Shown here: positions 13,160 through 63,736 of the stretch, in pieces
How positions within the stretch are numbered: position 1 is the first letter of the stretch
How the letters are laid out: every line of letters starts with the position of its first letter
Origin: a virus
Taxonomy: Duplodnaviria; Heunggongvirae; Uroviricota; Caudoviricetes
Strand: one strand, 5' to 3'
IMG/VR virus record: IMGVR_UViG_3300029570_000316
Length of the DNA: 64,000 nt
The notes under the pieces: generated by a model
Database searches by the model: none
What the model was told of the DNA's origin: nothing
The model's input: the letters and a program-made list of their open reading frames with translations, nothing else
Translations under genes and position numbers: made by a program

Positions 13160-13378
13160 TTATTTGTTGTTCTTGTGCCCTATATGATATTTGTTGCATA
13201 TCCTACACCGATACACCGCCATACCTTGTGCCCGTAACTTCGGATTCTGATTCAGAAACTCCCAAGCATCATCCTCGCTTTCATAAGCGACCTTCGCCTT
13301 CCAAGATTGACCCTTTCTAACCCAATGCTCAGGATCTGGATGCAAATGACGAGGAATACATTTATTTCTTTTCTTCAT
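13160..13378 (-). CDS. small zinc-binding protein
   Basis: 72 aa; CRICNKYHIGH motif. Confidence 0.35.
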   Translation of the reverse strand: MKKRNKCIPRHLHPDPEHWVRKGQSWKAKVAYESEDDAWEFLNQNPKLRAQGMAVYRCRICNKYHIGHKNNK

Positions 13379-14004
13379 AACTTCTTCAGAAATTTAAGTT
13401 GAAACCCTTCTGCCTTTTTTATTCCTGGGTATAGCTTCGTTAGAACCTCCCATGCTCTTGTCTTGTGCCGATGCCACATCGTAACCGGATGCACACGCTC
13501 ACCACTTGGTAACACATAGAAATCTGCCTTAATGGTATCAATATGCTCATAGTTTGCAGCTTTATATATAGTTCCCTTGTTACCTATGGACGTATCGGCA
13601 TAAGATATAAGGTACTTGATTTCCTTATGTGTTGCCCTAATATACTTATGCAAGAGAGATAGGCAAATCGTCTCGCTAAACTTTGGCATATCATCAGACA
13701 ACCACATTCTGTCAAATTCCCTCACTTGATGGTAATCCAACACTTCGCCCTTTTCAGCCTTGATGTGCGGTCGGATTCCATACCCTATTTGCATTGCACC
13801 CCTTATCTTATCCTTATACAATACCAAAAGATTCAAGCAACTATTCTTCGTTACCTTGTGTGAAAAGTGATGAGGAACTATGATTGCATCTGCTTGCGCC
13901 TTATCGCACTCCATCAGCTTTATTCCCTTTTCCTTGCATTCGTAACCGATAACAAATCCGCAGAAGCCTAGCACTGGAGACTTGTTCAACTTTCTTCTTC
14001 TCAT
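13375..14004 (-). CDS. hypothetical protein, candidate DNA-modification enzyme (Mom/GNAT-like?)
   Basis: 209 aa at the head of the methyltransferase cluster; AMQIGYGIRP resembles a GNAT Q/RxxGxG/A motif. Function is not established from sequence alone. Confidence 0.3.
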   Translation of the reverse strand: MRRRKLNKSPVLGFCGFVIGYECKEKGIKLMECDKAQADAIIVPHHFSHKVTKNSCLNLLVLYKDKIRGAMQIGYGIRPHIKAEKGEVLDYHQVREFDRMWLSDDMPKFSETICLSLLHKYIRATHKEIKYLISYADTSIGNKGTIYKAANYEHIDTIKADFYVLPSGERVHPVTMWHRHKTRAWEVLTKLYPGIKKAEGFQLKFLKKL

Positions 14005-14234: not shown

Positions 14235-14951
14235 TCAAAACAGACTTAACTGCCTACTCATATTCTTTAATTCGTTATTAGCAAAATCTACTTGACGCTG
14301 GTCTATTTCAAAGCCTATATACTTTCTTTCAAGGTTTACGCAAGCTCTTGCCGTTGTACCGCTCCCCATGAATGGGTCTAGAACAACATCACCAACATTT
14401 GTCGAGTTTCTAATTAATATCTCCATCAACTTTACAGGTTTTTCAGTCTGATTAATCAAACCATCCTTATCCTTGCGCTTGTTGGTTGGAATAGGAACAC
14501 TCAGAATGTCAGATGTACCACATTCATTTATCTGTCTATCACCACCTTTGCGTAGCATGATGATATACTCTTTCTGTGCCATATAATAGCGGCCACATAT
14601 TTTTGCGCACTTATCCCATATTAAGCATTTGGTAAAATGGAACTCACTCTTTCCTACCACATCAAGAAAGTGCATTAAATTATAATCATTACACATAAGA
14701 TAGCAATGCGACCTGTCCTTTAATATCCGGTACAAATCATTGATGTAGTCCGAAATATCAATATCGTTACTCTTGAATATTTTGCCCTTTCTTGTTTGAG
14801 ATTCCGTCCAATATCCTCCCATACTCCCTGAGCCACCCCTAGACTGAACCGGATAAGCCACATCGGAACATACGAGGTCTATGCTATCACTATCAATCAG
14901 CTTTAAAAGCTTTCGACAATCACCTTGATAAATTCTATTTAACTCCAGCAT
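14235..14951 (-). CDS. beta-class N6-adenine/N4-cytosine DNA methyltransferase
   Basis: Motif I DPFMGSGTT and an NQTEKP motif; atypical motif IV (SDVAYP). Start trimmed to the internal Met (MLELNRIYQGD), because the upstream ORF extension overlaps the preceding gene. Confidence 0.7.
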   Translation of the reverse strand: MLELNRIYQGDCRKLLKLIDSDSIDLVCSDVAYPVQSRGGSGSMGGYWTESQTRKGKIFKSNDIDISDYINDLYRILKDRSHCYLMCNDYNLMHFLDVVGKSEFHFTKCLIWDKCAKICGRYYMAQKEYIIMLRKGGDRQINECGTSDILSVPIPTNKRKDKDGLINQTEKPVKLMEILIRNSTNVGDVVLDPFMGSGTTARACVNLERKYIGFEIDQRQVDFANNELKNMSRQLSLF

Positions 14952-15648
14952 ATCCAAACATATCTTTTTGATTAAACAATTCTTCCTTAATTCTTCTTTG
15001 TGCCACCTTGAAATAATCCTCATCCAATTCAAAACCAAGGTAATTCCGATTTGTCCGCATACAAGCCAGAGCAGTACTTGCGCTGCCCATAAAGCCATCA
15101 AACACCAAATCGCCTTCATTTGATGATTTCAAGATGCATTGCATAAGCAAGGGGATTGGTTTCTCGTTCTAATGTACCAATTTATCTGATGGAACTCTAT
15201 CAAAGTCCCAAACATCCTCTAAACGCTTGCCGTTTATGGTTCGTCTGCCTTTATTCAAGTACAGGATTGGCTCGTAACATTGACCATATTGCGCCTCTAA
15301 ATCTCCAGCCGTATGGTTGTTCTTTCGCCAAATGAGCACATTCTTAATGGTAAACCCTGCATTCCTCGCTTGTTGCATAAAAAAGTCCAAGGTCTTAGCA
15401 CTACAGAAGATATAAGCAGCACTATCATCCTTCAAGATCCGGTAGCATTCGCTCATATAATCAATAATCAATTGCTCATTATCGTCATTGAGTATTTCCT
15501 TCGAAAAACGATGGTCGTCTGCTCTCCATCCCGTCTTATAGGAGATACAATATGGTGGGTCAGTAACAATTAAATCTACTTTCCCGCTCTCTATTTGTTT
15601 CATTCCTTCTATGCAGTCGGAATTGTATATTCTATCAAATTCAAGCAT
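14935..15648 (-). pseudogene. beta-class N6A/N4C DNA methyltransferase interrupted by a single in-frame TAG
   Basis: ORF 15169..15648 carries motif IV (TDPPYCISY); ORF 14935..15150 carries (E)KP and motif I (FDGFMGSAST). The two are in the same frame, separated only by TAG at 15169-15171. The interruption falls in the conserved H-x-x-x-KP region. Confidence 0.55.
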
Positions 15649-15649
15649 A

Positions 15650-16171
15650 TCAAATCTCTTTTATAGCGTTAATATAAGCTTCATGAGCCTCTTGTTGCGT
15701 ATCAAAGCAACCTATATATATTTTCTTTTTACCTATCTGATACTGCGCTTGCCATTTTCTTACACTCTTATTCCAAGTCACACCCAAATATTCGGAAGAG
15801 GTTTTCTTTGCTATAGCAGAATAAATCACATTGTATCTTGCGGTGCAATACTCCAAGTTGTCTACATCGTTATTCGTCTTGTCGAAATCCTTATGATTCA
15901 CCATCGGCAACGCTTCTGGATTCTCCAAGAAAGCCTGAGCTACCAAACGATGGATATAAAACATCTTGCGCTTTCCGTTCTTGTAAAGCCATACCTTCAG
16001 ATAACCTTTTGGTGTCTTGCAAGGTACGATTTCCTTTAATTGAGACGTTCTCCCAATAGTAAAAACATGTCCCAGCTTGCTAACATAATACCTTTCGTAA
16101 TTCTTTATAGGCTTTATATCACCAAGAAACCTTGTTATACATTTATCTTTCATTGTTACCTCCTTTTTCAA
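15650..16171 (-). CDS. HNH (HNH_3) homing endonuclease with NUMOD4-like N-terminus and C-terminal AP2 domain
   Basis: 173 aa. NYERYYVSKLGHVFT (NUMOD4-like); VNHKDFDKTNNDVDNLEY (HNH_3); YLGVTWNKSVRKWQAQ...EAHEAY (AP2). Confidence 0.75.
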   Translation of the reverse strand: MKKEVTMKDKCITRFLGDIKPIKNYERYYVSKLGHVFTIGRTSQLKEIVPCKTPKGYLKVWLYKNGKRKMFYIHRLVAQAFLENPEALPMVNHKDFDKTNNDVDNLEYCTARYNVIYSAIAKKTSSEYLGVTWNKSVRKWQAQYQIGKKKIYIGCFDTQQEAHEAYINAIKEI

Positions 16172-16886
16172 AGAAACTTGAATATATGGCTTGCGCCTCC
16201 TTTGTATCTAGCAAATCAATATCATTGTAAAACCTTCTGTACACAACGCACAGCCTTTCGTCATTTCCGGTTTCTCTTGCTTTAGCTATTTGCTGACAAG
16301 ACTCCATGAGAAATGCACTTATCTTCTCATAACTTCGCTTCTGTGTCTTCTTTAGCATATCCATGCTTACAAAGGTTTTGTAATGGATGATATGCTTTTC
16401 TTGCTCGTATTCTGTGAGTATAAGCCCTTCCGGAATAGCAAATACTACTCTTCTTGTCTTGTCATCACTATAGAGCTGAACAGCACCTGTAAACGATGTA
16501 TATATCTTTTGCAATATCTTGAGAATCGGTAAGTCTTTTTTCAAAAACCTTTCTGCAAATCTCTTCAGAAAATGAACGCTCATAGCAAAACAATCTTCGC
16601 TATACCCCTCGTTTCTACTCATAGGAATATACTCGTTGGTTTCCTTCAGATAAATGAACAAACCGGAAGCAAATACATCGCCATGTTTTACACCTACAAC
16701 GATGAAATAATCGGCATTAGGTGTAGCAAGCTCAAAGGTCTTTGTTATTTGTCTTACGTTCTGCTTTCTCATTTCACGTTTAAGCTCATTAGCTTTTCGC
16801 ATCTGAAACTCATAGATTCTAGCTTCATCTAAGTTTCGTACTCTACGCATCTCTCCCGATGTCATACTTGCTGTTATCATGCGCAT
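16143..16886 (-). CDS. hypothetical protein
   Basis: 247 aa between the homing endonuclease and the C5 methyltransferase; no motif recognised. Confidence 0.45.
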   Translation of the reverse strand: MRMITASMTSGEMRRVRNLDEARIYEFQMRKANELKREMRKQNVRQITKTFELATPNADYFIVVGVKHGDVFASGLFIYLKETNEYIPMSRNEGYSEDCFAMSVHFLKRFAERFLKKDLPILKILQKIYTSFTGAVQLYSDDKTRRVVFAIPEGLILTEYEQEKHIIHYKTFVSMDMLKKTQKRSYEKISAFLMESCQQIAKARETGNDERLCVVYRRFYNDIDLLDTKEAQAIYSSFFEKGGNNER

Positions 16887-17984
16887 TCCTCCTTTTTTAT
16901 TTTAGATAGCCAGCAATCCCAGATTCTAGTAGCTACATTAGCCATCATAACTGGAGGCACACACATACCACAGGCAAACCAAGGCTTCATACCATTAAAG
17001 TCATAATCCATAGGGAATGTTGAGGCTAAAATCGTATCATGCGCCGACATATAGCTTGGATTATCAAAATACACAAGTCTATCTTCCATTGCTGATATAG
17101 TATTGCATACCTTATTCTTTTTAAGAAACATATTATTGAACATAGAAAGACGATTATCCATCCGCTTGACAATATCACCGATAGAATTGTCCTTTTCGTT
17201 TCTATACTCCCAATACTTCATCATTCCTTTAGGAATCTGTCTTCCATTATAGTCCGAGAACTCATCCAAGACAATTTCTTTCTCGTTGAAGTCCATATCT
17301 ATCTTAGGCACTCGCTCGAACAAATCCTTCTGAACCATAAACGGCTTGCAAAGGTCTTTGCGTAATCCTAGAAAGAACACCCTAGGTCGATTCTGAGGAA
17401 CACCCATATTACGTGCATTAAGCAACCAATGCTGCAAGATATATCCGGCATTATCCATCTGCTTGTAAATCTCTTTCACGTACTCGATAGCTTCACCTTG
17501 CAACAAACCTTGGACATTCTCAAAAACCACCACCTTTGGCTTTAGTTCTTTAGCAAGGTCAATAGAGTAGAAAGCCAAATCGTCAAGCCTTTGCGCCTTC
17601 TGACCTTCTCGGAATACTTTTTCCTTTCCCCAAGCCTTTTGGCGGTCACCTGCAATACTGAATACAGAACATGGGAAACTAGCATCCAATATATCCAAAT
17701 TATGCAACTCTTCTTTCATAATATGGCCCCCCCATATTGATATTGGTAATCAACTCACGAATATCACAATTGAAAGAATACTTGACATCGTGATTCTTCA
17801 AGTACATCTTCATAACCTTTGGGTCTATCTCATTACAGGCTACAACATCGTAGCCAGCTAGTTTGTAACCAAAGGAACTTCCACCTCCACAACAAAAGCA
17901 AGACATCACCTTACCTTTGTCTTTTGTGAAATTAGCATCTTTTTTAGTCCATCTATAAGGGAACTTGTGCTCGTTTTTATACAT
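16877..17984 (-). pseudogene. DNA (cytosine-5) methyltransferase split into two ORFs by a +1 frameshift at a G7 homopolymer
   Basis: ORF 17700..17984 has motif I FCCGGGSSFG; ORF 16877..17719 has PC (SFPCSVFS) and ENV motifs. The ORFs overlap by 20 nt in different frames. A (G)7 run lies at 17727-17733 (minus sense ATGGGGGGGCC); one fewer G fuses the frames. Confidence 0.55.
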
Positions 17985-18078
17985 TTATCTACCATAAAAA
18001 ACAATCGTTAATAAAAACCGATGTATAAAAATAACCACAAGTAATATGGTTGTAAAAAAGGGACTCTAACCCTTGAAT

Positions 18079-19414: not shown

Positions 19415-19446
19415 TAAAAAAGGGGAACGGCATTAACACCATCCCC
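19415..19446 (-). terminator. rho-independent terminator after the putative major tail gene
   Basis: Minus sense GGGGATGGTGTTAATGCCGTTCCCC followed by T6. Confidence 0.55.
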
Positions 19447-19469
19447 CTCTATCATTTGTTGCCTATGTC

Positions 19470-63010: not shown

Positions 63011-63736
63011 CTAATCAATTGTAAACAACCTTTCGACTGGTCTCTTTGTTATATTCGGGTTAAGAGAGTTTGTTACTTCCTTTTCCCAAACACATCTGAA
63101 CTCTTGGGGCATCTGATACTCGCTGATAAATACCTTATGACCTCTTCTATCCATTTCCATGCACCATATATAGAATCTTTCGTAATCGAAATTCTTTGAT
63201 ACATCATACTTTTTCGTAGCTTTGTAAGGCAAATCGCAATACACTATACTCCTATCCGGTATCACAAGTTCATCATAACTGCCGCTATAAAACTCGACAC
63301 CTTTGAGAAGAGGCACATCACGCATTGTATTTTCTATCTGCTCCCTTATGTAATCTCTTGCCTTTCCGTTCTTGCCGACAACATTATGTCCGCTATAGCC
63401 ACCATCAAAGAAACGTCCATTAAAGCTCGCCATAAAGCCAATTAGTCCGACACCTGCTTCTGTGAAGAATTTATTCTTTCCGTGATAGCAGTCTCTTGCA
63501 AAGTTATACAACGTCTTACTAATATGGTTGAAGACAAACCCATCATTCTGAAGATACTTCCACATTTCGATAAGATACCTATTCTTATCGTTGGCAATCC
63601 TTCGATACGTGTCCGGAACGTTCTCAATAACGCTACAGCCACCACAGAAAGCATCTACAAACGTATCATGCTCTTTGTCCAGCATAATCGGCAATATTTC
63701 ATGCACGATTCTAGCCTTACTACCCATGTACTTCAT
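63011..63736 (-). CDS. Dam-family (D12 class, alpha-type) N6-adenine DNA methyltransferase
   Basis: 241 aa; N-terminal YMGSKARIV, motif I DAFCGGCSV, motif IV DLPY (a DPPY variant). Confidence 0.75.
   Translation of the reverse strand: MKYMGSKARIVHEILPIMLDKEHDTFVDAFCGGCSVIENVPDTYRRIANDKNRYLIEMWKYLQNDGFVFNHISKTLYNFARDCYHGKNKFFTEAGVGLIGFMASFNGRFFDGGYSGHNVVGKNGKARDYIREQIENTMRDVPLLKGVEFYSGSYDELVIPDRSIVYCDLPYKATKKYDVSKNFDYERFYIWCMEMDRRGHKVFISEYQMPQEFRCVWEKEVTNSLNPNITKRPVERLFTID

Follow-up and report, generated by a model that had tools for sequence, protein, structure and literature searches.

Phase-variable DNA methyltransferases are familiar from bacteria. In Type III mod phasevarions, a repeat within the open reading frame (ORF) changes length by slipped-strand mispairing, which turns the enzyme ON or OFF (PMC13076061), and cj0031 of Campylobacter jejuni encodes a phase-variable Type IIG enzyme with a poly-G tract (PMC4889913). 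Among phages, an A9 tract in the agt gene of phage T2 toggles glucosylation of the DNA, and with it sensitivity to TgvAB versus sensitivity to McrA/BC, which allows sub-populations to evade one modification-dependent restriction system while becoming sensitive to another (Gomez, Barrick and Waters, bioRxiv 2025; PMC12633550). The same preprint cites Sorensen et al. 2021 for hypermutable poly-G tracts in receptor-binding proteins of Fletchervirus phages of Campylobacter, and Liu et al. 2004 for a poly-G run in a methylase gene of phage BPP-1 of Bordetella, which by the preprint's account has had no further study. Switches of this kind have only recently been recognised in phages, and for gut phages no account of a methyltransferase phase-varied by poly-G turned up in the literature searched. 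We analysed a stretch of 64,000 nucleotides (nt) from a Caudoviricetes virus (IMG/VR record IMGVR_UViG_3300029570_000316), hereafter the window, in which a C5-cytosine DNA methyltransferase gene (PF00145; minus strand, 17984-16877) is present as two ORFs. The poly-G tract beside the break is likely a slipped-strand contingency locus that toggles this gene, and the window was probably caught in the OFF state.

Like the bacterial phase-variable methyltransferases, this gene has a simple-sequence repeat within its reading frame. Unlike them, it is a phage gene without a visible restriction partner, and tracts of this kind occur separately in as many as four methyltransferase genes of the phage group. 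The benefit would also differ, likely lying in the protection or exposure of the phage's own DNA and not in host gene regulation. The closest functional analogue is T2 agt, with which the locus shares a homopolymer in a phage DNA-modification gene, frameshifts that would be reversible and a putative restriction trade-off. In T2 the tract is A9, the enzyme a glucosyltransferase and the evidence a laboratory experiment, whereas here the tract is G7, the enzyme a C5 methyltransferase and the evidence natural variation in gut metagenome assemblies. The likeness to the Fletchervirus phages and BPP-1 is that of hypermutable poly-G in phage genes, in BPP-1 also in a methylase.

A first-pass annotation of the window had described a C5 methyltransferase split over two overlapping ORFs at a G7 run, with motif I in one ORF and the PC and ENV motifs in the other. 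Translations and PF00145 profile matches bore this out (Table 1). The N-terminal ORF carries motif I (CFCCGGGSSFG) and an N-terminal extension (HKFPYRWTK..KDKGKV) that is kept in diverged lineages; its tail consists of 11 out-of-frame residues, with PYYERRVA before the stop at 17700-17702. The C-terminal ORF starts at an internal ATG (17717-17719) and contains motifs IV (SFPC, in SFPCSVFS), VI (ENV, in FENV), VIII (QNRPR) and X (GMCVPP). The N- and C-terminal ORFs share 20 nt, read in different frames. The G run had been placed 12 nt from the overlap; the actual distance is 7 nt (CCATATT, 17726-17720) to the ATG that opens it. Removal of one base gave a 368-amino-acid (aa) ORF that matched PF00145 over profile positions 2-322 of 324 (E = 2.9e-41, 142 bits with a cut-off of 22). 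Motifs I, IV, VI and VIII were found in the translations and in the alignment with the structure 8YF3, and the poly-G tract corresponds to codons 84-86 of 368. The nearest kin are methyltransferases of Bacteroides and Phocaeicola phages (~50% identical). Judged by its profile match and motifs, the feature is a phage-encoded orphan C5-cytosine DNA methyltransferase.

The best match in the PDB was SpCmoX (8YF3), the DNA cytosine C5-carboxymethyltransferase of Synechococcus phage S-B43, which aligned end to end (E = 1.5e-33) and shares the fold and the motif order. CmoX enzymes are recognised by an SPPC motif, an Arg equivalent to R350 and a linked CmoA (PMC12783734). The window's protein differs from SpCmoX in having SFPC instead of SPPC as motif IV and a Met aligned with Arg-350, and no CmoA-like family was found among 103 window ORFs. 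Carboxymethylation of the CmoX type was rejected on these three grounds.

The tract varies in length among related phages, as determined with a pattern scan allowing any G-run length. Among 109 IMG/VR contigs, 80 had G7, 19 G8, 8 G6 and 2 G9; among 31 metagenome contigs, G7 was found in 22, G8 in 8, G6 in one and G9 in none. The combined 140 gut-metagenome and virome contigs (G7 102, G8 27, G6 9, G9 2) thus included 38 of off-length. G7 alleles are in frame and G6, G8 and G9 alleles are out of frame, i.e. the length of a repeat within the ORF sets the reading frame. An earlier impression of an invariant G7 (78/81 among the best 80 related loci) was overturned by the scan, since that list favoured intact genes. 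The off-length metagenome contigs included some with coverages of 41x, 64x and 78x. The gene calls of a large public assembly collection list the exact 280-aa C-terminal fragment of the window as a gene by itself in 315 blocks. Nine of these blocks were sampled; six had G8 and three had G6, the assemblies were made with SPAdes and MEGAHIT, and coverage was up to 456x. In protein clusters, the 368-aa form had 2651 members and the 280-aa form 362.

The recurrence of these changes was assessed in 85 full-length copies representing 42 haplotypes. Tract length differed among copies otherwise identical over 1.1 kilobases (kb); for example, seven copies in a group of 12 had G7, four had G8 and one had G6. 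On the tree, the tract underwent at least 16 independent changes, near the shuffled expectation of 21, versus an average of 0.37 steps per site and 7 steps at the most variable site. The polymorphism of the tract is far above background and decoupled from phylogeny. With the tract reset to G7, all off-length alleles (22/22) were intact over 368 codons, which argues that the variation is not gene decay and that the OFF alleles would be reversible in principle. Other lesions were present in 7/63 G7 alleles, namely a nonsense codon at 51, an A6-to-A7 change, a 5-nt deletion and a stop at codon 146. Met-27 was considered as the true start, by which the A6-to-A7 change and the 5-nt deletion upstream of it would be harmless. 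This was opposed by the conservation of the N-terminal extension in diverged lineages; because that conservation argues that Met-1 is real, the intactness test was rerun from Met-1.

Two shorter runs near the start of the gene also varied. In L076, L078 and L079, three relatives that differ in haplotype, the A6 run at 17940-17945 (codons 14-16) is A7, which frameshifts the N-terminal extension and makes the run a further slippage site, weaker than the G tract. A T6 run shortly before the methyltransferase start codon (minus sense, 17996-18001) was T7-T9 in 13/101 relatives, which may be a length polymorphism of the promoter or leader.

A/T runs and second tracts in relatives served as error controls, the G7 at 17727-17733 being the only G/C run of at least six in the window. 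Nearby coding A/T6 runs at the same loci showed 0-3% variation, and a coding T8 run in a 2088-aa ORF was T8 in 12/12 relatives. Where a contig carried both the C5 methyltransferase tract and a second tract in a DPPY methyltransferase gene, all four ON/OFF combinations were seen; the two tracts thus vary independently within contigs, which argues against a per-assembly bias. Consensus errors in 27-29% of assemblies from short-read data, very deep ones included, are implausible.

The window itself differs from its in-frame relatives beside the tract and not in it. In-frame relatives have G7 followed by a single C (ATGGGGGGGCAT; 78/81 related IMG/VR loci), and in MT835576, which at 93.7% identity is the one close relative in GenBank, the 368-aa gene is intact and reads ATG-GGGGGGG-C-AT. 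In the window, G7 is followed by CC and then by ATATT up to the internal ATG. The alignment with the G8 allele of relative L173 is gap-free with one G-to-C change. On comparison of the alleles, G7CC reads as an extra C on G7+C or, equivalently, as G8+C with the last G turned into C. The extra base at 17725/17726 is the sole coding indel that parts the window from most relatives over the 31.7 kb compared. Dropping one G (G6CC) gives ATG GGG GGC CAT (MGGH), with an unchanged protein. One fewer G, as originally suggested, restores the protein, but the allele of intact relatives is G7+C and G7 is the ON length. With hundreds of relatives compared, the G7CC allele had no match elsewhere in IMG/VR or the metagenome contigs and was absent from the nine sampled contigs with the identical 280-aa fragment, and the 94-aa product of the N-terminal ORF was absent from the protein records searched.

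Sequencing or assembly error, by which the true sequence would be G7+C with an intact gene or else G8+C, fits the uniqueness of G7CC and its position directly beside a homopolymer. The assembly is otherwise clean, with 1-2 gaps in 7.1 kb compared with relatives that are 99.4-99.6% identical; its A/T homopolymer lengths agree with theirs, and the change is a C, not a miscalled G length. A second lesion, outside any homopolymer, lies in an adjacent methyltransferase gene, which random error would not target, and a true G8+C would leave the C5 gene OFF anyway. We regard an error at this position as quite improbable. Homopolymer error had been one of the explanations first offered for the split; it could be behind the single C, but it fits a C insertion poorly and leaves the pattern in the population unexplained.

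Plain inactivation was also considered. The extra C would then be an ordinary one-off mutation in a dispensable gene, the G run would be incidental and the gene a young pseudogene. In agreement with this, the lesion is a C without any change in G length relative to the ON allele and is found nowhere else, relatives carry the non-tract lesions mentioned above, and a second methyltransferase gene of the window bears a nonsense codon. Against it, G7CC shares the +1 register with the common G8 OFF state, from which it is parted by the single gap-free G-to-C difference, and the rest of the C5 gene is intact. Since the G7 run is kept in G7CC, reversion by slippage to G6CC with an identical protein would still be possible. 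Moreover, plain inactivation addresses only the origin of the window's allele and not the hypervariability of the tract in the population. We consider it unlikely.

The contingency locus, our preferred reading, had been proposed from the window as a phase-variable methyltransferase switch. Tract lengths of G6-G9, the decoupling of length from phylogeny and the intact OFF alleles strongly favour it at the population level; the proposal needed amending in that G7 is the ON length and the window's lesion is the adjacent C. We hypothesize that, as phage DNA is replicated, the G run causes the polymerase to slip. G7 would keep the frame and yield the 368-aa protein (ON), whereas G6, G8 and G9 would break the frame after motifs I-III, so that the catalytic half is unlinked from the cofactor-binding half (OFF). 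The OFF allele of the window, being in the +1 register, would regain the same protein by losing one G (G6CC). The switch would be reversible, and each burst would mix methylating and non-methylating genotypes. This could represent bet-hedging between hosts with restriction enzymes that are blocked by methylation and hosts with methylation-dependent defences.

Several observations weigh against a contingency locus. The window has the same tract length as the ON allele, its lesion is found in no relative, and G7CC could be a one-off mutation or an error and not a product of the switch. All evidence on the tract comes from consensus assemblies, some of which may derive from samples common to IMG/VR and ENA. 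Contig L227 has three poly-G tracts, all lacking a single G relative to ON, which could reflect selection or a systematic under-call in its data set. A G7 run is expected once per 64 kb (dinucleotide shuffles: mean 1.31, 63% with at least one); the significance of the tract therefore derives from the comparative data and not from the window alone. Even so, the tract stands out as the only G/C run of at least six in the window and as the single GGGGGG among 65 Gly-Gly pairs, and GGG accounts for only 6% of the Gly codons. Finally, motif X has a Met where C5 methyltransferases normally carry Asn (Asn-304 of M.HhaI).

The same substitution at this near-universal Asn site (…ACGMCVPP… in the window) is present in the homologue of the Bacteroides phage LoVEphage (GMSVPP). 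The cofactor or chemistry of this clade of Bacteroidales phages may be non-standard.

Beyond close relatives, lineages whose proteins are 81-86% identical retain a tract in this position, with flanks of their own, and OFF lengths occur there too. The 85% lineage has ATG-G6-CAGGAT (OFF) and ACG-G8-CAGGAT (OFF), the 82% lineage CTG-G7-CAGGAT (ON) and the 81% lineage CTT-G8-TAAG (ON). The tract is missing in the ~50% identical LoVEphage homologue and in one 79% identical lineage. From this distribution, the tract looks maintained by selection; the rarity of GGG among Gly codons and the poly-G tracts of other methyltransferase genes point the same way.

Three further N6/N4-type methyltransferase genes of relatives, named here after their DPPY, DLPY and DIPY motifs, each have a variable poly-G of their own. 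The DPPY gene (methyltransferase #1) has GAGAGT-G6/7/8-TGAGC or TCG-G7/8-C; the DLPY gene has GTG-G7-AGTGTTGGAT and is split; the DIPY gene has TGT-G7/8-TAAAATT and is split at G7. These tracts are located at ~5400 in L058, L069, L070, L071, L082 and L175, at 3802 and 5050 in L227, at 3621 in L230 and at 8351 in L095. The window's copy of the DPPY gene has no poly-G tract (…ESGKVDLIV…). All variable poly-G found in these phages was in methyltransferase genes, except at one small ORF and one intergenic site. The small ORF encodes 66 aa of unknown function and has G7 or G8 (L087 at ~2700, L095 at ~10757), with G7 giving the full-length product. The intergenic site is a GAGGGGG just before a start codon (GATAGAGGGGGATGG; 19443-19447 in the window), which has G8 in one relative and G6 in two (L169, L096 and L159). 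In the cultured Bacteroides phage Versailles (ON453897; L203), the C5 methyltransferase homologue is also split (~1610-1640), just before motif IV and beside a GAGAGAGAG repeat, and the annotation shows a shortened methyltransferase together with hypothetical proteins.

If the switch works as proposed, a widespread lineage of human-gut phages would have a shifting mixture of methylomes, governed by poly-G switches that act independently in as many as four methyltransferase genes. This would alter how phage methylation motifs are read from long-read or bisulfite data and how host range and restriction escape are predicted, and hundreds of methyltransferases annotated as 'truncated' would be OFF states. 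It would also lend natural, population-scale support to the laboratory claim that phages hedge their bets by means of contingency loci in genes for DNA modification. The locus gains interest from evidence at population scale and from a pattern that extends over several genes.

The split gene might nevertheless be expressed, through a +1 ribosomal shift (by slippage on the G run or by quadruplet decoding with a tRNA) or through assembly of the fragments into a two-subunit enzyme. Split C5 methyltransferases are known, both natural and engineered, from M.AquI and from fragment-complementation studies. A tRNA of the window has an 8-nt anticodon loop, CUAUGCAA, whose AUGC anticodon would pair with the codon GCAU. 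The zero frame of the N-terminal ORF ends in GUU GCA UAA, where reading GCAU as four bases would be followed by AAU UUG GAU (NLD) in frame, and in G8 alleles an in-frame GCAU stands immediately 3' of the tract. Homologous tRNAs of relatives (L205-L225) had the loop CUUGGUAA in 19 cases, CUAUGCAA in 5, CAUGGUAA in 2 and the normal 7-nt UUUGUAA (Thr UGU) in 3; the phage group conserves an anticodon loop that is both expanded and changeable. The commonest loop, CUUGGUAA, resembles the Thr-derived suppressor sufJ and would read ACCA, for which an in-frame target (AUU ACC AAU) lies within the rescue window. In addition, a Met codon follows soon after the tract in every tract-bearing lineage examined, and in G6 alleles the stop overlaps this Met codon (AUGA), which would favour re-initiation.

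An 8-nt loop with an in-frame cognate in the rescue window was thus found, but the chance of a given quadruplet in a 16-codon window is ~6%. In-frame GCA-U was not depleted in the phage genes (65/342 GCA codons, 19% against 20.7% expected), and the AUGC variant of the tRNA was also found alongside ON alleles, showing no link to OFF alleles. Neither GCAU nor ACCA occurs in frame in the +1 allele of the other poly-G methyltransferase. A programmed shift would be required and conserved among relatives, whereas 73% of them (102/140) have an uninterrupted ORF. The break lies between motifs III and IV, inside the catalytic domain, which is an unlikely site for complementation. We consider continued expression of the split gene very unlikely by any of these routes. 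The programmed frameshift through the 8-nt-loop tRNA that the first-pass annotation had put forward finds no support, given the in-frame relatives, the lack of GCA-U avoidance and the missing link between tRNA variant and OFF alleles. That this tRNA (AUGC here, UGGU in most relatives) decodes a four-base codon in the rescue window of +1 alleles is a very remote prospect; the sites read would be GGG-GCAU-AUU in G8 alleles, GCAU-AAU before the stop in the window and AUU-ACCA-AUA upstream. If it did so, the poly-G switch would be a dimmer and not an on/off switch, and the phage would possess a natural suppressor of frameshifts that fits the contingency locus it carries.

The C5 methyltransferase gene belongs to a modification gene cluster with the order Mom, N6/N4 methyltransferase #2, N6/N4 methyltransferase #1, HNH/AP2 endonuclease, a gene of unknown function and the C5 methyltransferase (Table 1). 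The unknown gene begins within the end of the C5 methyltransferase gene, with 10 nt (16877-16886) shared by the two. Methyltransferase #1 is interrupted by an in-frame TAG, where a 99.6% identical relative has CAG (Gln). Among relatives, 40/43 copies of this gene were intact and none had the TAG. Recoding of TAG to Gln was rejected because TAG ends 24/106 genes and no CUA tRNA is present. Two methyltransferases thus appear to be knocked out in the window phage. Two unique lesions outside homopolymers, in two methyltransferase genes of an otherwise clean genome, suggest recent selection against methylation in this phage.

Table 1. Positions of the split C5 methyltransferase gene, its tract and other features of the window.
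Feature	Coordinates	Strand	Details
Mom-family DNA modification protein	13375..14004	-	intact; PF25680, E = 2.5e-35
N6/N4 DNA methyltransferase #2	14235..14957	-	start MDMLELNRIYQGDC; appears intact
N6/N4 (DPPY) DNA methyltransferase #1	14935..15648	-	237 codons; in-frame TAG 15169-15171
HNH/AP2/NUMOD4 homing-endonuclease-like gene	15650..16171	-	between methyltransferase genes
247-aa gene, function unknown	16143..16886	-	conserved in relatives; no family match
C-terminal C5 methyltransferase fragment	16877..17719	-	280 aa; PF00145 profile 56-322; aligned to 8YF3
N-terminal C5 methyltransferase fragment	17700..17984	-	94 aa; PF00145 profile 2-51
CC replacing the single C of in-frame relatives (+1)	17725..17726	-	comparison with relatives
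Poly-G tract (G7; C7 on + strand)	17727..17733	-	codes Gly-Gly; G6/G7/G8/G9 in relatives
tRNA with 8-nt anticodon loop CUAUGCAA	26921..26995	-	ARAGORN anticodon AUGC
D12-class methyltransferase	63011..63736		

Two metagenome-assembled genome (MAG) bins (Segatella copri and Waltera) and the ~50% identical homologues in Bacteroides and Phocaeicola phages link the phage to a host. The assignment is weak; the host probably belongs to the Bacteroidales. The window is rich in defence and counter-defence genes, encoding five DNA methyltransferases, Mom, a Tad2-like anti-Thoeris domain, RtcB, an amidoligase, a radical SAM protein, ThyX and several HNH endonucleases.

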